From: an uncultured Microbacteriaceae bacterium | GTDB lineage: Bacteria > Actinomycetota > Actinomycetes > Actinomycetales > Microbacteriaceae | Assembly (NCBI GenBank): GCA_937872445.1 | Contig: CALMSL010000193.1 | Location: forward strand, 1,605 to 65,604 | Length of the DNA: 64,000 bases | Direction: 5' to 3' | Part shown: piece by piece, positions 3,251 through 44,897 of the stretch | Numbering within the stretch: the first letter of the stretch is position 1 | How the letters are laid out: every line of letters begins with the position of its first letter | Notes under the pieces: model-generated | Told to the model about the DNA's origin: nothing | Databases searched by the model: none | The model's input: the letters and a program-made list of their open reading frames with translations, nothing else | Program-made: the position numbers and the translations under genes

Positions 3251-5888
<2,638 letters not shown>

Positions 5889-37189: not shown

Positions 37190-39967
37190 TTACTCCCTGT
37201 CGGTCAGCGACCAGGCATCCTCGGACGACGAGCCTTCGACTTCATCGTATCCGCTCGTGGACTTCGCGACCGGGTCGTGGTCGTACCGGTCTGCGTCATG
37301 GTGCTCGGGCGCCATTTCGCCGACGCCGCCGCGCAGGCGGGCGAGCACCTCGGGAAGCTGTTCCGCTGACACAAGGACATCCCTCGCCTTCGACCCTTCG
37401 GACGGGCCGACGATTTCCCGGGACTCGAGCAGGTCCATGAGCCGTCCGGCCTTCGCGAATCCGACTCGGAGCTTGCGTTGCAGCATCGAGGTGGACCCGA
37501 ACTGGGTGCTCACGACGAGCTCTGCCGCAGCCAGCAGAACATCGAGGTCGTCGCCGATGTCGCCGTCGATCGCGTGCTTTTCGGTCGCCGCCGCCACATC
37601 CTTGCGGTATTCGGGCCGGGCCTGAGCCGTGACGTGCTTCACCACGGCGACGACTTCGCTTTCGCTCACCCACGCGCCCTGAACGCGAATCGGCTTCGAC
37701 GCCCCCATGGGGAGGAAGAGCGCGTCGCCCTGGCCGATGAGCTTGTCGGCTCCGGCCTGGTCGAGGATGACGCGGGAATCGGTCATGCTGCTCACCGCGA
37801 ACGCGAGTCGGCTGGGCACGTTCGCCTTGATCAGCCCGGTCACGACGTCGACGCTCGGCCGCTGGGTCGCCAGCACCAGGTGGATTCCGCTCGCGCGCGC
37901 GAGCTGCGTGATGCGCACCACCGAATCCTCGACGTCGCGGGGCGCGACCATCATGAGGTCGGCAAGCTCGTCGACGACGACGAGCAGGTACGGGTATGGC
38001 TTGAGCTTTCGCTCGCTCCCCGGGGGCAGCGTGATCTCCCCGGCAACCACTGCCGCGTTGAAATCGTCGATGTGGCGGTAGCCGAAGCTCGCCAGATCGT
38101 CGTAGCGCATGTCCATTTCCTTCACGACCCAGGACAGGGCTTCCGCAGCCTTTTTCGGGTTCGTGATGATGGGCGTGATGAGGTGCGGGACACCGGCATA
38201 GTGGGCCAGTTCCACCCGCTTGGGGTCGATCAGAACCATCCGCACTTCGGCCGGCTTGGCCCTCATGAGCAGGCTCGTGATCATCGAGTTGATGAAGCTC
38301 GACTTTCCGGATCCGGTCGCCCCCGCCACGAGCAGGTGCGGCATTTTGGCGAGATTCGCCACCACGAAGCCGCCTTCGACATCCTTGCCCATGCCGATCG
38401 TCATCGGGTGGGCGCTCGACGTGCTCGCTGTGGAACGCAGCACATCGCCGAGCGAGACGATCTCGCGGTCCAGGTTCGGGATCTCCACGCCGATCGCGCT
38501 CTTGCCCGGAATCGGCGAAAGTATCCGCACCTCGTTGCTGGCCACCGCGTAGGAGAGGTTCTTGCTGAGCGCGGTCACCCGCTCCACCTTCACGCCCGGG
38601 CCCAGTTCGATTTCGTAGCGCGTGACGGTCGGGCCGCGGCTAAAACCGGTGACGACCGCATCCACCTGGAACTGCTTCAGCACTTCGGAGATCGAGCGCA
38701 CGATGTCGTCGTTCGCACCCGACCGCGTCTTCGACGGCGTGCCGGGCTCGAGCACGGAGGATGCGGGCAGCCGGTACGGCGCCGTGGGCTGGTTGGCCGC
38801 CGCATCATCGAATTCGCCGGCTTCGCCCTTGTCGTGAGCTCCCGTGGAGAATCCGGGAAGTCGCTCAGCGGGCCCGGGAGTCCCAACTCGAACGGAGTCG
38901 TCGCGAATCCCGGTCGCCGACTCGCCATCCATTTCGCCCGTGAAGCGCTTGACCGCTTTCTCCGCCTTGAGCAGGTCTTCGATGAGTTCGATGCCGAACT
39001 CGTCCCTGGGCGTGTGGTCGATAGCGCCGGTTCTGGCATTCATGAGAACCGGGCTGTCGAATGCCGGCTCCTCTTCGCGCTGGAGCTTGTTGCGCCTCCA
39101 CCACGGCACCTGGTCCGCATCCTCGACCTGCGCTTCGAGCCCGAGATCGCCGAGCGTGCCGAGCGGCACGGTCGCCGTCTTCGCCGCCTTCCTGGCCGCG
39201 AGTTCTTCCGGATCCGGAAGCTCGGCGCCGAACAGGTATGCGTACAGTTCACGGAGCCGGAATCCGATGCGATTGGGCGGTGTCTTCGTGATGATGAACA
39301 GCGACATGACGAGCGCGAGGACGATGAGGGGCACCGCGATCCAGGCAGTCAGGTAGGTGGTCAGGGGCATCCCGATGGCGTAGCCGACAATTCCACCCGC
39401 TATGGCGAAGGCGCCGATCGGGTCACCCCACGACGGGCTCCCGCCGTAAATGTGGCAGAGCGCGCAAATGCTCGCGACAAGCACGCCCATGCCGATTCCG
39501 ATCCGGCCGTTGTCGTGGACGGACGACGGATGCCGGAAGAACCACACCGCGAGCACGAGCAGGATGACCGGGAGCGCGAACGCGAGCCGACCGAATGCGC
39601 CGCCGAACGTGTACGCGTCCAGGGCGATCGCGACCGGATCATTCGGGAAGAACCACTCCACGACCGCGCCGCCGATGGCGAGCAGGAAGAACAGGAACGG
39701 CACGCCGTCGCGCAGTTCGTCCTTCGCCAGCGTTTCCCGGCCGAACAGCCGCGCAGCGCCGCCCACCATGCGGGCCAGCCCGAGCCACGTCTTCGTGAGG
39801 ATCCCCGGCTCCTGCGCGGGGGTGCGCTTCTTCCTGGCGGGCGGACGACGGACGGGAGCCGCCCGCGTGCGGGTCGTCGAGGCGCGCGAACGCGACGTCG
39901 ACCGTGAGGTCGGCGTCGACGAAGCACGCGTAGCCATGCGGTCAACGGTACTTCGGCGCTGTGTCAA
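37190..39967 (-). CDS. ftsK: DNA translocase FtsK
   Basis: 925 aa with N-terminal TM helices, a linker, motor-domain Walker [10 protein letters not shown] and a C-terminal gamma wHTH ([24 protein letters not shown]). Confidence 0.96.
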
Positions 39968-40012: not shown

Positions 40013-41689
40013 TCACGCCTCGATGACCACGGGGACGATCATCGGACGGCGCCGGTGCTGCGAATTCACCCAGCGCCCGACCGTGCGGCGGATGATCTGA
40101 CTGAACGCGTGCGTGTCGCGCGTGCCGTTCTCCGCAGCCTCGGTGAGCGCCTTCACGATCAGGGGTTTCACGTCATCGAACACCGCATCGTCCTCGGCGA
40201 ACCCGCGGGACTGAATCTCCGGGCCGACGATGATTCGCCCGGTTTGCGAATCGATTGCCGCGAAAATGGAGATGAAGCCCTCTTCGGCGAGGATGCGGCG
40301 ATCCTTCAGATCGGCATCGGTGATCTCCCCCACCGTCGAACCGTCGACGTAGACGTAGCCGAGATCCAGCTGTCCGACGACCTCGACGACGCCATCCTTC
40401 AAATCGAGAACGGTGCCGTCTTCGGCGATGAACGTGTTCTCCTCCGGGATGCCCATGTCGATCGCGAGCTGCTGATTTGCCACGAGGTGCCGGAATTCGC
40501 CGTGGACGGGCAGGACGTTTTTCGGCTGGATGATGTTGAAGCAGTACAGCAGCTCTCCGGCGGCCGCGTGCCCGGACACGTGCACCTTCGCGTTGCCCTT
40601 GTGCACGACCGTCGCGCCCAGCTTCGTGAGGCCGTTGATGACCCGGTACACGGCGTTCTCGTTGCCGGGGATGAGGCTCGAGGCGAGAATGACCGTGTCA
40701 CCCTTGCCCACCTCGATCTGGTGTTCGAGGTTCGCCATCCGCGCGAGCACCGCCATCGGTTCACCCTGGGACCCCGTGCTCATGTACACGATGCGGTTGT
40801 CGGGCAGTTCGGCCGCCTTCTTCGTGTCGACGAGCACGCCCTCCGGCACTTTCAGGTAGCCGAGATCTGCCGCGATCGTCATGTTGCGCACCATCGAGCG
40901 GCCCATGAACGCGACCTTGCGGCCGTTCGCGTGCGCGGCGTCCAGAACCTGCTGCACCCGATGCACGTGGCTGGAGAAGCTCGCGATGATCACCCGGCGC
41001 GGCGCCTTCGCGATGACGGTTTCCAAAACCGGGCCGATCGCGCGCTCCGACGCGGTGAACCCGGGAACGTCGGCGTTCGTGGAGTCGACGAGAAAGAGGT
41101 CCACTCCGGCTTCGCCGAGCCGCGCGAATGCCCTCAGGTCGGTGATGCGGTCATCCAGCGGAAGCTGGTCCATTTTGAAGTCGCCCGTGTGGAGGACGAC
41201 GCCGGCGCTCGTCGTGATAGCGACCGCGAGCGCATCCGGGATGGAGTGGTTCACCGCGATGAATTCGAGGTCGAACGGCCCGAGCTTCTCGTGCTGGCCC
41301 TCCCTGACCTCCAGCGTGTACGGCGTGATGCGGTGCTCCTTGAGCTTCGCTTCGATGAGGGCAAGGGTGAGCCCCGAGCCCAGAAGCGGGATGTCCTGGC
41401 GCAGCCTGAGGAGGTACGGAACCGCACCGATGTGGTCTTCGTGGCCGTGTGTGAGCACGATGCCCAGGATGTCGTCGAGCCGGTCCCTCACCGGCGCGAA
41501 GTCCGGGAGGATCAGGTCGACGCCCGGCTGGTTCTCTTCCGGGAACAACACCCCGCAGTCGACGATGAGCAGCTTGCCGTCGATTTCGAACACGGTCATG
41601 TTGCGGCCGATTTCGCCGAGGCCGCCGACCGGGATGACGCGGAGGGTGCCCGGCGCCAGAGTCCGCGGTTCGTACACAGCTGAATTCAT
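40013..41689 (-). CDS. rnj: Ribonuclease J
   Basis: 558 aa, beta-CASP metallo-beta-lactamase with motif HGHEDHIG. Confidence 0.96.
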   Translation of the reverse strand: MNSAVYEPRTLAPGTLRVIPVGGLGEIGRNMTVFEIDGKLLIVDCGVLFPEENQPGVDLILPDFAPVRDRLDDILGIVLTHGHEDHIGAVPYLLRLRQDIPLLGSGLTLALIEAKLKEHRITPYTLEVREGQHEKLGPFDLEFIAVNHSIPDALAVAITTSAGVVLHTGDFKMDQLPLDDRITDLRAFARLGEAGVDLFLVDSTNADVPGFTASERAIGPVLETVIAKAPRRVIIASFSSHVHRVQQVLDAAHANGRKVAFMGRSMVRNMTIAADLGYLKVPEGVLVDTKKAAELPDNRIVYMSTGSQGEPMAVLARMANLEHQIEVGKGDTVILASSLIPGNENAVYRVINGLTKLGATVVHKGNAKVHVSGHAAAGELLYCFNIIQPKNVLPVHGEFRHLVANQQLAIDMGIPEENTFIAEDGTVLDLKDGVVEVVGQLDLGYVYVDGSTVGEITDADLKDRRILAEEGFISIFAAIDSQTGRIIVGPEIQSRGFAEDDAVFDDVKPLIVKALTEAAENGTRDTHAFSQIIRRTVGRWVNSQHRRRPMIVPVVIEA

Positions 41690-42663
41690 CGTGTCGTTCC
41701 TGCAACCTTCGGTAGCGCCCCGCCGGCTGCCGCGTTGCGGTCCGGGCGGAAGTTCGTGAGGTCGAGGCCGGGGATCTGGTCGATCCGCGCGAGATCCTCC
41801 TCGATCTGGGCGGCCTCGAAATCCTCGGGGCCGACGAGGGGCAGTCGCACGCGCGGCGAATCGATCCGCCCCAATCCGTGCAGGATGTATTTGGCCGCGA
41901 CGGTGCCCGGCACGTGCGTCATGACAGCCCTGACGAGCGGTTCGAGGAGCCGGTGCGCCGCGGTCGCCTCGGCGAGCCGGCCCGCGTTGACGGCATCCAC
42001 GATCTGGCGATACGGGCGGGTCGCGATGTTCGCGGTGACCCCGACGAGTCCGGTGGCGCCGATCGACAGGTGCGGGAGGACGTTGGCGTCATCCCCGGAG
42101 AAGTACAGCAAATCGGTCTCGTTGAGCACGCGGCTGACCTGGCTGAAGTCGCCCTTGGCGTCCTTGATCCCCACGACGTTCGGGTGCTTCGCGATGCGGG
42201 TGATTGTCTCGTAGTTGATGGGAACTCCCGTGCGGCCCGGGATGTCGTACAGGATCACCGGAAGGTCCGTCGCGTCGGCGATGAGCCGGAAGTGGGTGAG
42301 GATGCCGGACTGCGTCGGCTTGTTGTAGTACGGCGTCACGATCATGACGCCGTCCGCACCGGCCTTCTCGCTGTCCCGGTAAAGCTGCATCGCGTGCGCG
42401 GTTTCGTTCGAGCCGCCGCCCGTGATGATCTTCGCGCGGCCGGCCGCGACCGACTTGCCGACCTCGACGAGCCTGACCTTTTCCGGGTCGGTGAGCGTGC
42501 TCGTCTCCCCCGTCGTACCGGACACGACGATACCGTCCGCGCCGTCCGTGATGACGTGGTCGATGTGCTTCTCGACCCCGGCCCAGTCCACTTCGCCATC
42601 GGCGTTGAACGGGGTCACCAGGGCGACGAGCACCTGGCCGAACGGATTCTCTCGAGTAGTCAC
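41686..42663 (-). CDS. dapA: 4-hydroxy-tetrahydrodipicolinate synthase
   Basis: 325 aa with GTTGE and the Schiff-base Lys region (GIKDAKGD). Its stop overlaps the rnj start. Confidence 0.95.
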   Translation of the reverse strand: MTTRENPFGQVLVALVTPFNADGEVDWAGVEKHIDHVITDGADGIVVSGTTGETSTLTDPEKVRLVEVGKSVAAGRAKIITGGGSNETAHAMQLYRDSEKAGADGVMIVTPYYNKPTQSGILTHFRLIADATDLPVILYDIPGRTGVPINYETITRIAKHPNVVGIKDAKGDFSQVSRVLNETDLLYFSGDDANVLPHLSIGATGLVGVTANIATRPYRQIVDAVNAGRLAEATAAHRLLEPLVRAVMTHVPGTVAAKYILHGLGRIDSPRVRLPLVGPEDFEAAQIEEDLARIDQIPGLDLTNFRPDRNAAAGGALPKVAGTTR

Positions 42664-42733
42664 GAGTTACAGGCTATCGCGAGGAGACCTCCGGCCCGCG
42701 CCGAGGGTGGGCTGACCGGCCGGGACAAGCACT

Positions 42734-42754
42734 CTACGGCGCGACGCGGCCGTT
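42734..42754. repeat. Left 21-bp direct repeat (orphan copy of the thyX 3' end)
   Basis: Identical to 44008-44028. It lies ~70 nt upstream of the dapA start codon. Confidence 0.9.
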
Positions 42755-42764
42755 CCCGCAATCA

Positions 42765-42845
42765 GTGTTGTGCAGGACATCCTGATGGGTGCGTGCGTGC
42801 GGGGAGCCAAAATTGACAAGTTTGGATGGATGTCCTGCACAACAC
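42765..42845. repeat. Perfect 18-bp inverted repeat pair (R1/R2) with 45-nt spacer
   Basis: GTGTTGTGCAGGACATCC (42765-82) and GGATGTCCTGCACAACAC (42828-45), lying 48 nt downstream of the DUF559 gene stop. Confidence 0.9.
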
Positions 42846-42892
42846 GATGGAGCGCGACGAGGTGGCTGCCTCCCTAATTGGTACAGCTGTCT

Positions 42893-43810
42893 TCAGCCGG
42901 GCTGATGATCGCCGCGAGACACAGCGGCCAAGATCGAACCCTCGACGGTTGGCCACTCATAGACGACCTGCGAATACATGAAACGCAGGACACGACACCC
43001 TCTCGCACTTAGTGCGGCATCCTTCTGACGATCCCGGTACGGATCACTGTGGAACTCCCGACTGTCAACCTCGATCACCAGCCGCTCCCCAATGAGGAAG
43101 TCAAGCGGCCCAACTCCACCCACGAAGGCTTGCTGGGTGAATCGAAGTCCCAGAGCGTGAAGATGCAGCTTCATGATTGATTCGGTTCCGCTGTCCGATC
43201 TGGTGGACGCGATTCGACCTAAGGGCCTGTCCGCAATCTTTAGCGAATTGAACACCAGTGTGCGATCCGACTGTGTCAGCTTTCGCTTTCGCAGAGCTGA
43301 CTCGAAGACGACAAATCCAGCTCCCCGCCCCTGGCACGCAAATGTCCGCACGATGCATTCGACGATCGATACCGCATGACGGTCGCCGCCGAGTCCGCTT
43401 CGACTCCAGTGGACCACAATTGCGTCGTCAGGATGAGCCGCAAGCCGTTTCCTGAAGTCATCTGCTGTGCGCAATCTGGATGCCCGCCGCGGCACAGCTA
43501 CATGCAAGCCCACGTGTTCCGGAACCCACAGTCCATGGTGAATAGAGCCACTCACGCAGGTCAATTTGCCGCCGATACGAAACGCGCGCAATGAAGGCTG
43601 CTTGCAATCGGAAATCGCGTACCAACCCTTTCTCACACGCAGAATCCGGCTGGCCTGGACTGCCGCGAATACGCTATCCGGAGAGTATCCGAGTCTGGCC
43701 AACTCGGAGGCCTTGGCGAACCCGCCAAGCTTCAGAATGTCCGCTTCAATGTGACTCATTTCCCAATCGTCGCCGTGGAAATTCGCTGTCAGCGGTTTTG
43801 CCGCATGCAC
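42893..43810 (-). CDS. wHTH (AbiEi-like N-terminal) + DUF559 (Vsr/restriction-endonuclease-like fold) protein
   Basis: 305-aa ORF from GTG at 43810 (alternative ATG at 43759, MSHIEADIL). N-terminus GFAKASELARLGYSPDSVFAAVQASRILRVRKGWYAI. C-terminus PLDFLIGERLVIEVDSREFHSDPYRDRQKDAALSARGCRVLRF, typical of DUF559. Confidence 0.8.
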   Translation of the reverse strand: MHAAKPLTANFHGDDWEMSHIEADILKLGGFAKASELARLGYSPDSVFAAVQASRILRVRKGWYAISDCKQPSLRAFRIGGKLTCVSGSIHHGLWVPEHVGLHVAVPRRASRLRTADDFRKRLAAHPDDAIVVHWSRSGLGGDRHAVSIVECIVRTFACQGRGAGFVVFESALRKRKLTQSDRTLVFNSLKIADRPLGRIASTRSDSGTESIMKLHLHALGLRFTQQAFVGGVGPLDFLIGERLVIEVDSREFHSDPYRDRQKDAALSARGCRVLRFMYSQVVYEWPTVEGSILAAVSRGDHQPG

Positions 43811-43823
43811 TGGGGATTACCCG

Positions 43824-43994
43824 GTTGTGCAGGACTTTGGAGGGAGTGGAGTTCAGTCTGGCGCTGCCCCCAGACGATTGTGCAGGACATTACGGGTACT
43901 GAATCCGCAAGGTCCTGTGGCGCGAGTAATTAATTGAGATTGTCCTGCAAAACACGTTTGGTGGCAGGGAGGGGACTGGAATGTCCTGCATAAC
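43824..43994. repeat. Array of four TGCAGGAC-core repeats (R3,R4 forward; R5,R6 reverse) in the DUF559 gene upstream region
   Basis: The cores are at 43828-35 (+), 43881-88 (+), 43942-49 (-) and 43983-90 (-). A degenerate copy sits at 43908-20. The nested convergent arrangement pairs R3/R6 and R4/R5. Confidence 0.85.
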
Positions 43995-44007
43995 TGGATG
44001 AGGGCGG

Positions 44008-44028
44008 CTACGGCGCGACGCGGCCGTT
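44008..44028. repeat. Right 21-bp direct repeat (functional thyX 3' end incl. stop codon)
   Basis: Its reverse complement AACGGCCGCGTCGCGCCGTAG encodes ...NGRVAP*. Confidence 0.9.
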
Positions 44029-44769
44029 TTCGTTGAACGCCGAGTAGGTGAGCGGCATGAGCTCGGCGAAGTGGGCTTCCATCTTCTCCGCGCACATCTC
44101 TATCTCCCGCTGCGGGAACGACGGGAAGTGGCTGCCCTCCCGTTTCGTGCGCAGCGACAGGAAATTCATGAGCGATCGCGCGTTCATGGTTACGTACATC
44201 GACGAGTAGATCGTGAGCGGGAGGACGATCCGGGCGACCTCGCGGGCGACCCCGGCCTCCAGCATCCGCTGGTACGCATCGTACGCGTGCTGCGACACGT
44301 CGCGGGTCTGCTGTTCGACGAGCGCGGTTTGCTCTGCGGACCCGGGGTGGAACTCGTACGCGCCTGGCTTTCCGGTCTGCAACAGGTTGCGCTCCGGAGA
44401 CGGAATGTAGAACACCGGGTTCAGTTCCCGGTAGCGACCGGATTCCTCGTTGTAGGAGGCGATGCGGTGGCGCATGAATTCGCGGAACACGAAGATCGGC
44501 GCTTGAACGTAGAACGTCATCGAGTTGTGCTCGAACGGGGATCCGTGGCGGTCACGCATGAGGTAGTTGATGAGGCCGCGGTTGCGCTTCTGATCCTGCT
44601 CCGTCTCGGCGCCGTCAAGCTGGCTGGACTCGAGCGTCTGCTCCCCCTGCGTCGACACGCGCGCGGCGAACAGCACGTCCGAGTCGTGCGCGCTCGACCG
44701 CACAAGTTCCACGGTGACATCGGAGCGAAACTGGATGGGCGGAACGGACTCTTCTGGCACGGAGTTCAC
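44008..44769 (-). CDS. thyX: FAD-dependent thymidylate synthase
   Basis: 253 aa with ThyX motif RHRIASYNEESGRY and a GTG start. Confidence 0.96.
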   Translation of the reverse strand: MNSVPEESVPPIQFRSDVTVELVRSSAHDSDVLFAARVSTQGEQTLESSQLDGAETEQDQKRNRGLINYLMRDRHGSPFEHNSMTFYVQAPIFVFREFMRHRIASYNEESGRYRELNPVFYIPSPERNLLQTGKPGAYEFHPGSAEQTALVEQQTRDVSQHAYDAYQRMLEAGVAREVARIVLPLTIYSSMYVTMNARSLMNFLSLRTKREGSHFPSFPQREIEMCAEKMEAHFAELMPLTYSAFNENGRVAP

Positions 44770-44897
44770 GATAGCGAACCGTCAGAGCGCTCCGCAGCGG
44801 GCGCGCCGACGAGGGCAGCCTTGGGGTTGCCTGTGATCGCGGCCCCGCTCTCTCACGGCTGACGTAGGGTGGGGGGACCACGAGGGAAGGAGCAATC

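Follow-up and report, generated by a model that had tools for sequence, protein, structure and literature searches.

How does a lone gene for a nuclease-like protein come to stand between two housekeeping genes, with the last codons of one of them repeated on its far side, and does it bring about its own movement? The question is raised by positions 42734 to 44028 of a 64,000-nucleotide stretch of DNA (the window) from contig CALMSL010000193.1 of an uncultured Microbacteriaceae bacterium, where an insert with a single gene on the minus strand, here called the cassette, separates thyX from dapA. An earlier reading of the letters alone (the original prediction) had seen in it a mobile or homing-type element. 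Comparison with related genomes gives solid support, at the level of sequence, to a discrete, recently acquired and horizontally exchanged single-gene cassette at a polymorphic, clade-specific site. We further infer, with the scales about level, that the cassette is selfish and autonomously mobile, is bound to specific sites and encodes a protein that recognises the cassette's own ends.

A Foreign Insert at the 3' End of thyX

The 21-mer CTACGGCGCGACGCGGCCGTT occurs twice in the window, at 42734-42754 and at 44008-44028, and no third site was found even when up to three mismatches were allowed. With 0.01 matches expected by chance and none of 100 shuffles yielding two, it is no common genomic repeat, a reading that the original prediction had set against its own. 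As had been noticed from the letters, the repeat is perfect and the sequence identity ends right at both borders of each copy. The thyX-side copy (44008-44028, minus strand) consists of the last six codons and the stop of thyX (..NGRVAP*), again as claimed; this gene, for the flavin-dependent thymidylate synthase, occupies 44008-44769 on the minus strand (Pfam Thy1, E = 5.6e-53). The dapA-side copy (42734-42754, minus strand) is non-coding. It is followed by a 70-nt spacer and the CGATAGCCTGTAA..GTG leader of dapA, as the thyX end is in the empty sites of relatives described below, so that it does lie where a thyX stop would be expected. On this comparison the dapA-side 21-mer is most likely the recipient's original thyX end.

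When positions 42755-44028 are removed, the end of thyX (...AACGGCCGCGTCGCGCCGTAG) stands directly before the 70-nt spacer and dapA, which reconstructs the empty site. The native spacer with the dapA leader (42664-42733, minus strand) differs at 4 of 70 nt from that of L001, an independent metagenome-assembled genome (MAG) of a near-conspecific relative, and this equals the background. The dapA-side 21-mer of L001 already has one substitution.

The inserted cassette itself (42755-44007, minus strand; 1253 bp), bounded by the two 21-mer copies, has a G+C content of 57.3%, compared with 66.0% for the window and 66.5% for the flanks. The low G+C content had been pointed out before, and the drop is real, but at 9 points it is about half as large as the first estimate of 50-52% against about 70%. 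The same cassette junctions were found in L001 and in an assembly from an independent read set (L161), so the insert is not an assembly artefact. Given this shared structure and the two copies of a repeat that chance would hardly supply once, the idea of an assembly chimera or of a common repeat at its borders has practically no probability left.

Occupied, Empty and Exchanged Sites

Relatives were sampled in two independent ways. A scan of one genome per species yielded 333 relatives, from which 80 loci were kept. A gene of the same family lies between thyX (where present) and dapA-rnj in 29 of these, spread over many genera of the Microbacteriaceae, and all but one of them share the orientation seen in the window. 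The ORF (open reading frame) identity at these thyX-site loci is 34-65% and that of the flanking proteins mostly 73-94%; the exception is the near-conspecific L001, at 98%. The second sample was anchored on thyX and comprised 80 metagenome loci with 66 readable thyX-dapA junctions. Most junctions (48 of 66) are empty, with 10-97 nt between thyX and dapA, nine hold a member of the family (truncated in three cases), and nine hold other DNA. The empty ones include that of the closest thyX relative, L081 (92-95%). In them a single thyX end is followed, after a short spacer, by the conserved leader CGRTAGCCTGTAA..GTG, and this arrangement matches what follows the dapA-side 21-mer in the window. Relatives thus do possess the empty site with one copy of the 21-mer region that the original prediction had proposed to look for. 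In comparisons of the window with relatives that have other cassettes or empty sites, homology stops at the thyX stop and returns some 20-36 nt 5' of dapA. In the pair L008 and L063, the flanks are homologous at 90-92% up to the thyX stop and again from 19 nt 5' of dapA. The truncated remnants retain the upstream palindrome described below, which indicates that cassettes also decay.

Each ORF clade is tied to one conserved housekeeping intergenic site. In other clades of the Microbacteriaceae these sites lie between a dapD-like gene and the citrate synthase gene (gltA), pcrA and GDPD, GNAT and an ABC transporter, an M23 peptidase and an amylase, and rimM and trmD. Paralogues within one genome fall in deep, site-specific clades. 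The 64-kb window holds a single copy, without further family members or other context sites. A multi-copy, transposon-like unit is contradicted by this single copy, by the clade-fixed sites and by the absence of the cassette motif elsewhere in most of the related 10-kb loci; the family loci and the mixture of occupied and empty junctions do provide the other copies and polymorphic insertions that had been called for.

The history of the cassette was compared with that of its hosts. On the tree of thyX and dapA, empty sites are interleaved with five deep ORF clades. Host identity is 97.2% between L027 and L009, 96.3% between L008 and L063 and 90.4% between L028 and L012, while the ORF identity in the same pairs is 38.7%, 41.3% and 40.9%, respectively. 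Over 300 pairs, host and ORF identity are related with a Spearman rho of 0.10. The comparison of the two trees shows that the cassette tree is incongruent with the host tree, different lineages filling the same site in near-identical hosts.

The closest pair tells of a recent event. Between the window and L001, the synonymous divergence (dS) is 0.014 for the ORF, against 0.19 for thyX, 0.19 for dapA and 0.25 for rnj, which supports an estimated age for the cassette that is more than 10 times lower than that of its flanks. Only 16 differences were counted in the 1253-nt insert, 6 of them in the 335 non-coding nt, compared with about 5-10% in the flanks. The adjoining 3' segment of thyX (44008-44163, minus strand) is identical to that of L001 over all its 156 nt, while 19 mismatches fall in the 322 nt that come next, and was exchanged along with the cassette. 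The low-divergence tract extends from about 42750 to 44163 (about 1.4 kb); it ends within thyX on one side and at, or immediately beside, the dapA-side 21-mer on the other. The occupied allele was therefore exchanged between two lineages that had already diverged, and a tract of this extent, with its 156 nt of thyX, indicates homologous recombination. In no pair other than the window and L001 does the cassette exceed the flanks in similarity (99.1% against 92.5%). An example of replacement is given by L067 and L072, with 93% identity in the flanks and 64.5% in the ORF. Empty sites, incongruent trees and the dS contrast together bear out the proposal that a discrete, foreign unit with one gene was inserted at the 3' end of thyX, and a gene that is carried by all relatives and follows their phylogeny is not what was found. 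That ORF dS is 2-3 times higher than flank dS in several pairs was not counted in favour of transfer, since a weaker codon bias of the ORF could account for it. Two hyper-divergent patches were also seen between the window and L001, one at the 5' end of thyX (44715-44784, 37 of 70 columns) and one at 38845-38914 (44 of 70 columns), with 5-10% elsewhere.

Other genes may also occupy the thyX-dapA interval. In the freshwater-type relatives L089 (4760-6025) and L138 (4732-6006) it is filled by a SulP permease gene on the opposite strand, and gaps of similar size are present in L090, L093, L101, L105 and L127. Gaps of 1.2-1.4 kb without an ORF were considered as divergent family members and rejected, since those of L089 and L138 hold the SulP permease. 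In L009 (2203-4750) and L027 (6030-8262) the interval also contains a gene for an AI-2E-family transporter, which is split in L009 and is accompanied by a PLD-type gene in L009 and by a possible lipoprotein gene in L027. In this host clade the A3-type cassette stands on the thyX side of the transporter gene and the A1-type cassette on the dapA side. Tandem double cassettes as a source of the A1/A3 incongruence were looked for in vain; the extra DNA consists of the transporter, PLD-type and lipoprotein genes.

The cassette splits a thyX-dapA-rnj operon and has the same orientation as the operon. The gene dapA occupies 41686-42663 on the minus strand (Pfam DHDPS, E = 2.6e-82), and rnj, for RNase J, lies downstream of it at 40013-41689 on the same strand. 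A 4-nt overlap (41686-41689) joins the stop of dapA to the start of rnj, which fits translational coupling within the operon. A conserved CGRTAGCCTGTAA-like block, 5-10 nt 5' of the dapA start, is shared by occupied and empty loci (42664-42685 in the window) and is seen at the equivalent position in almost every relative; it may serve as a dapA leader or as a ribosome-binding context.

A Winged-Helix Protein Fused to a Nuclease Fold

The insert has one convincing ORF, which mechanically extends from 42893 to a GTG at 43810 on the minus strand. These were the limits given in the original prediction, and stop and strand are retained, but alignment with 30 homologues places the start most likely at the ATG at 43762. 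The cassette gene (42893-43762, minus strand) would then encode a protein of 289 aa in which an AbiEi-like winged helix-turn-helix (wHTH) and a middle domain are fused to a Vsr/DUF559 nuclease domain. Pfam detected DUF559 (PF04480) at aa 220-297, with 31.4 bits against a cut-off of 20.6 and E = 1.9e-7. The ORF had no match in NCBIfam, and PF13338 was found in its homologues.

A structure was predicted with AlphaFold (AF2) from 31 sequences, with a pLDDT of 90.8, and compared with the PDB using Foldseek. Residues 1 to about 225 resemble the two-domain AbiEi antitoxin 6y8q (E = 7e-6 over 225 columns) and also Rv2827c (1zel, E = 4.8e-3). The last 100 residues or so resemble the catalytic domain of the homing endonuclease I-Bth0305I (3r3p), with a TM score of 0.79 and a root-mean-square deviation of 2.1-2.5 A, as well as NGO0050 (3hrl; TM score 0.76). 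A search of the PDB with the A1 sequence profile gave the same two nucleases, 3hrl at E = 2.2e-10 and 3r3p at E = 5.5e-4. Pfam, Foldseek and profile matches therefore agree with the domains that had been read from the translation. Among the 31 sequences, which reach down to 32% identity, D237, D249, H254, D260, D264 and R276 are invariant and E247 is kept in at least 90%, so that a D...ExD...H nuclease core is present. Going by these alignments, the nuclease core is conserved and matches the Vsr/DUF559 clade of the PD-(D/E)xK superfamily. The conserved D/E/H residues, in a confidently modelled fold, thus uphold the prediction of an intact and putatively catalytic nuclease site. Vsr, DUF559 and I-Bth0305I have been placed in one clade (PMC3424549). 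The ratio of nonsynonymous to synonymous divergence (omega) of the ORF is 0.08-0.23 in pairs of family members, which indicates that the protein is functional and under purifying selection.

No transposase of the DDE or HUH type and no serine or tyrosine recombinase was detected in the cassette, whose recognisable domains are the AbiEi-like and DUF559 ones. A gene for an AbiEii toxin (DUF1814 nucleotidyltransferase) is likewise absent from the neighbourhood, since only thyX and dapA adjoin the cassette, and the same holds at the other family contexts. PADLOC returned weak AbiEi matches at the N-terminus only (E 0.002-0.03).

The family is large, with at least 2,222 representatives of 50%-identity clusters at E <= 1e-3. 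Rv1073 of Mycobacterium tuberculosis, of about 283 aa, has the same architecture as the cassette protein (AbiEi COG5340 and YcjD/COG2852). Nothing in the papers that could be searched ties DUF559 or AbiEi fusions to mobility, to a specific site or to repeats in their flanks, and the cassette family of the Actinomycetota is apparently undescribed so far. Family members are almost absent from phage and plasmid collections, where one unverified scaffold and three large actinobacterial replicons were found. Carriage by a phage or plasmid as vector was rejected on account of this near-absence.

Paired Inverted Motifs on Both Sides of the Gene

The motif core TGTGCAGGACAT (in full, GTTNTGCAGGACAT) is present in six copies, all within the non-coding parts of the insert. 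Four copies lie upstream of the ORF as two nested inverted pairs, and two lie downstream as a perfect 18-nt inverted pair. The upstream module (43822-43997, minus strand), presumed to be an autoregulatory operator, has its cores at 43826-37 and 43879-90 on the plus strand and at 43940-51 and 43981-92 on the minus strand. The downstream module (42765-42845, minus strand) lies just past the ORF stop; its arms (42765-82 and 42828-45) are 100% complementary around a 45-nt spacer, and its folding gave z = -3.9. In the window, the span of the inner upstream pair is 73 nt, and so is that of the downstream pair.

Alignment of the two cassette ends as inverted repeats defined an imperfect terminus on the thyX side (43978-44007, minus strand) and another on the dapA side (42755-42782, plus strand). 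The similarity reaches the last base of the insert and covers about 28 nt, with 79% column identity and one 2-nt indel. The outer core 12-mers are 14 and 15 nt away from the two direct-repeat copies. Inverted termini had been reported at 42763-42782 and 43978-43997, 8 and 10 nt inside the direct repeats. Their position is right, but they are merely the outermost two of the six motif copies: the supposed terminal inverted repeats belong to paired inverted-motif modules on both sides of the gene.

This arrangement is widespread in the family. An inverted pair (motif of at least 11 nt) upstream together with a pair of the same motif downstream was found in 52 of 79 family loci, compared with 1 of 64 and 2 of 71 in position-shifted controls. 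The motif is lineage-specific and shifts gradually along the ORF tree (TCCTGCACAAC, TCCTGCATTTC, TCCTTCATTTG, TCCGTCATTTC and TCCTTGATTTG), for example through TCCTGCA, TCCTTCA, TCCGTCA and TCCTTGA. Within each 10-kb locus it is essentially confined to the surroundings of the gene. The layout of palindrome, gene and palindrome was also found in Tsukamurella and in a gut actinobacterial scaffold, at an ORF identity of 28-31%.

The two modules are related by their geometry. Across 37 simple loci the half-site spacer ranges from 20 to 74 nt, and the upstream and downstream spacers are of equal length in 29 and within 1 nt of each other in 34. In 10,000 permutations, equal spacing occurred in 1.6 loci on average and in 7 at most. 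The upstream and downstream spacer sequences are no more alike than shuffled ones. Equal spacing despite randomised spacers argues for one protein complex of fixed geometry that binds both modules.

The modules are terminal and coincide with the borders of homology. Between L008 and L009, cassette homology starts 2-3 nt outside the outermost motif, and the first motif begins 0, 6 and 13 nt past the thyX stop in L004, L114 and the window, respectively. AbiEi and Rv2827c regulate their own expression by binding to inverted repeats in the promoter, two sets of them in the case of Rv2827c (PMC7319586). By homology with AbiEi, the motif pairs would most simply be protein-binding operators. By the same analogy, the wHTH probably binds the motif pairs. 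No RNA element (intron, ribozyme or guide RNA) was matched in the insert by Rfam at E <= 1, nor was a tRNA found, and the modules contain no sigma-70 consensus promoter.

Some loci depart from this plan. The homologue of Acidipropionibacterium (L164, 2285-2443 and 2501-3361) stands in the secY-adk-map / infA-rpmJ-rpsM cluster, with map on one side and infA on the other; two palindromes with 32-nt arms lie upstream of it and none downstream, where a DUF1707 gene begins 11 nt past the stop. In L003 (4033-5864) a three-copy module right after the thyX stop precedes about 600 nt resembling a reverse-strand ORF, and then come one more copy of the motif and the DUF559 gene; the cassette may have a passenger gene here, or else three modules. 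Simple-sequence arrays were seen between the thyX stop and the first cassette repeat, namely (GTGCY)n in the degraded cassette of L159 (4820-4923) and (CA)8 in the intact one of L006 (about 4790-4805).

Origin of the 21-bp Duplication

Three observations bear on the source of the second 21-mer: the two copies in the window are identical, decay is seen in the dapA-side copy of L001, and at this resolution the 3' end of thyX does not stand out as foreign from the remainder of the gene, as a donor-derived flank might have done. Together they suggest a duplication of recipient sequence. An identical 21-mer is present in the relative L086 (86% thyX identity). One-sided homologous recombination with an illegitimate second junction could also have given rise to the duplication. 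The 21-mer is itself near-palindromic (AACGG CCGCG T CGCG CCGTA G), and this symmetry, with motif cores at 14 and 15 nt on the two sides, is what would be expected from a dimeric enzyme that makes 21-nt staggered cuts. The suggestion that the 21-mer is the core of an att-type site served by a trans-acting integrase found no support, and no integrase was found. Both copies (44008-44028 and 42734-42754) score as weak terminator-like hairpins on the plus strand.

A target duplication as a hallmark of the whole family was rejected, for exact-match, local-alignment and position-focused tests were negative beyond the window and L001. In 17 other thyX-site cassettes no decayed copies of the thyX end were detected after the last motif (Fisher p = 0.93). 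These 17 insertions are old (dS of at least 0.2-1.7), so that the missing traces neither prove nor exclude a duplication at their origin. A likeness of the A1 motif to the thyX end (8 of 15 positions, by eye) was too weak to evaluate.

Does the Cassette Move Itself?

The selfish-cassette reading can be put as a sequence of steps. The wHTH would bind the motif pairs and, by way of the upstream ones, repress its own gene, in the manner of AbiEi and Rv2827c. The downstream pair would be occupied by the same complex, and the protein would so mark both ends of its own gene. The nuclease would cut at or near the cassette ends, the near-palindromic thyX terminus, or both. In the lineage of the window, the cassette would have entered through a break with a 21-nt stagger, and fill-in would have duplicated the last 21 nt of the recipient thyX. 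Host end-joining or one-sided homology would complete the insertion and leave thyX intact. Afterwards the cassette would be inherited mainly vertically, with occasional replacement or copying between relatives through recombination in the conserved flanks, and would eventually decay. What we infer in sum is repeat binding and autorepression by the wHTH, marking of both gene ends by the protein, and help from the nuclease in insertion, excision or recombination.

A number of facts speak against this reading. In pairs other than the window and L001 the similarity of the ORF lies 2-10 points below that of the flanks (17-28 in some), as in mostly vertical descent, and the G+C content of the cassette is generally ameliorated, with a mean of 1 point below the host and the 9-point deficit in the window and L001 only. 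The flanking direct repeat is significant in these two loci only, among 57 tested, and a duplication so limited in lineage could have arisen accidentally, through illegitimate recombination. Each site has a single copy, the rest of the 64 kb has none, and there are no non-autonomous derivatives. Solo modules are absent from all 48 empty sites, for which reason excision by module-module recombination that leaves such a module was rejected. L164, without downstream palindromes, indicates that end-marking is not universal. A single protein would have to recognise both its own motif and the host target. The family protein Rv1073 is still annotated as a conserved hypothetical (PMC13366182). We know of no Vsr-type nuclease with strand-transfer activity.

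The most serious rival, which we consider somewhat improbable, sees in the cassette a passive accessory gene, that is, an autoregulated nuclease that benefits or addicts its host (a single-chain AbiE-like toxin/antitoxin, abortive infection or another defence) and does not move by itself. The motif pairs would be operators only, the upstream and downstream sites perhaps looping for tight repression; presence, absence and replacement would come about by deletion and flank recombination, and the 21-bp duplication would be a one-off product of homology-facilitated illegitimate recombination. Much of the evidence is at home in such a reading: the AbiEi-like fold of the N-terminal two-thirds, in a class of proteins that autoregulate through inverted repeats, the purifying selection on the ORF, the mostly vertical descent with its ameliorated G+C, the confinement of the duplication to one lineage, and the exchange between the window and L001 that took in thyX sequence, as plain recombination would. 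The outgroup L164, with its upstream palindromes only, fits as well, and fast co-variation of protein and operator is typical of paralogous toxin-antitoxin (TA) or regulator pairs that avoid cross-talk. Yet the gene has no partner toxin, its neighbours being thyX and dapA, and PADLOC gave nothing beyond its faint N-terminal AbiEi hits; the cassettes stand at clade-fixed sites between core housekeeping genes and not in defence islands. The motif modules are the exact ends of the variable unit, and identical downstream spacing in 29 of 37 loci is not needed for simple autoregulation. Identical 21-mers beside a thyX 3' end that is not detectably foreign also fit recipient duplication better than a donor flank.

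A classical free-standing homing endonuclease gene is quite unlikely in our estimate. Once the DNAs of two relatives had come together in a cell, its product would cut the thyX-dapA allele that lacks the cassette, double-strand-break repair would copy the cassette with its flanks, and the motifs would be regulatory only. The nuclease domain is indeed closest in fold to the intron homing endonuclease I-Bth0305I, which a profile search also detects, and the common clade with Vsr and DUF559 (PMC3424549) agrees with this. The genes are intergenic, site-faithful and sporadic, with degenerate copies and a host-incongruent tree, and the 156 nt of thyX beside the cassette could be a short co-conversion tract, seen in one pair only. 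Homing is at odds with the place of the motif whose changes follow those of the protein: it is found in the flanks of the cassette itself and, at one and the same host site, varies widely from cassette to cassette beside a conserved thyX end. Break repair yields no 21-bp target duplication, A1-type and A3-type cassettes use different junctions of the same interval (L009, L027), and the cassette is younger than its flanks in one pair only. Two further candidates were rejected. Dispersed repeats like those of REP/RAYT are not indicated, as the motif occurs only around the gene and there is no HUH domain, and neither an integron cassette nor an att site with its integrase agrees with repeats that stand on both sides and co-vary with the protein, in a locus with no integrase and no array.

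The strongest form of the selfish-cassette reading would make such cassettes of the Actinomycetota an unrecognised class of minimal, single-protein mobile element, in which an AbiEi-wHTH::Vsr-nuclease binds and cuts its own ends, the near-palindromic 3' end of a housekeeping gene, or both, and in which host end-joining or recombination, with no recombinase, installs the cassette in a safe harbour with a 21-bp duplication. We put this forward tentatively and hold it doubtful in this full form.

Relation to Known Systems

Fusions of DUF559 and AbiEi domains are numerous in actinobacteria and none has a known function; the present locus supplies a concrete anatomy, and the family has fixed sites between core genes such as thyX and dapA, dapD and gltA, rimM and trmD, and map and infA. 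If the nuclease does drive movement, this would be a new route of mobility that needs neither a transposase nor an integrase, and the family would also offer programmable wHTH-nuclease pairs whose cognate sites are known. Otherwise, the cassette would still be a new type of tightly autoregulated chromosomal nuclease module, with clear co-variation of protein and motif and a conserved spacing rule.

With the AbiEi antitoxins of the type IV AbiE systems (Streptococcus agalactiae 6y8q and Rv2827c, 1zel) the cassette protein shares the two-domain fold of residues 1 to about 225, and the cassette shares the inverted repeats upstream of the gene, in two sets. It differs in having no AbiEii toxin, in the fusion to a nuclease, in the downstream module and in forming an insertable unit; the lack of AbiEii places it outside the AbiE TA family. 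I-Bth0305I, an EDxHD/Vsr-like enzyme of a phage group I intron (3r3p), has the same C-terminal fold and a site-specific, sporadic distribution, while the cassette stands outside any intron or intein, has another DNA-binding region and shows an apparent specificity for its own flanks.

Tn7, which inserts at attTn7 after glmS and whose TnsA is a PD-(D/E)xK protein, resembles the cassette in its insertion just past the stop of a conserved essential gene that is left intact, in its restriction-fold nuclease, in terminal inverted repeats with several internal sites and in an apparent target duplication. The cassette has one protein, without DDE transposase, target selector or ATPase; its duplication is of 21 bp and not 5 bp. 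RAYT genes with their REPINs are likewise single-copy, largely vertical genes flanked by palindromes that their product is thought to recognise. RAYTs are HUH Y1 transposases, however, and REPINs are dispersed genome-wide, whereas outside the cassette its motif is missing from the 64-kb window and from most 10-kb loci. The cassette thus lies outside the transposase-defined insertion sequence (IS) families, RAYT/REPIN and integron cassettes.

The free-standing homing genes seg and mob of T-even phages share with it a lone nuclease gene between conserved genes, presence in some relatives and absence from others, and co-conversion of flanks. In the cassette these features are found on a bacterial chromosome and with a Vsr/DUF559 fold, together with cognate paired repeats at both ends and a 21-bp duplication. 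By analogy with these systems, the cassette would work most like a free-standing homing or safe-harbour element.

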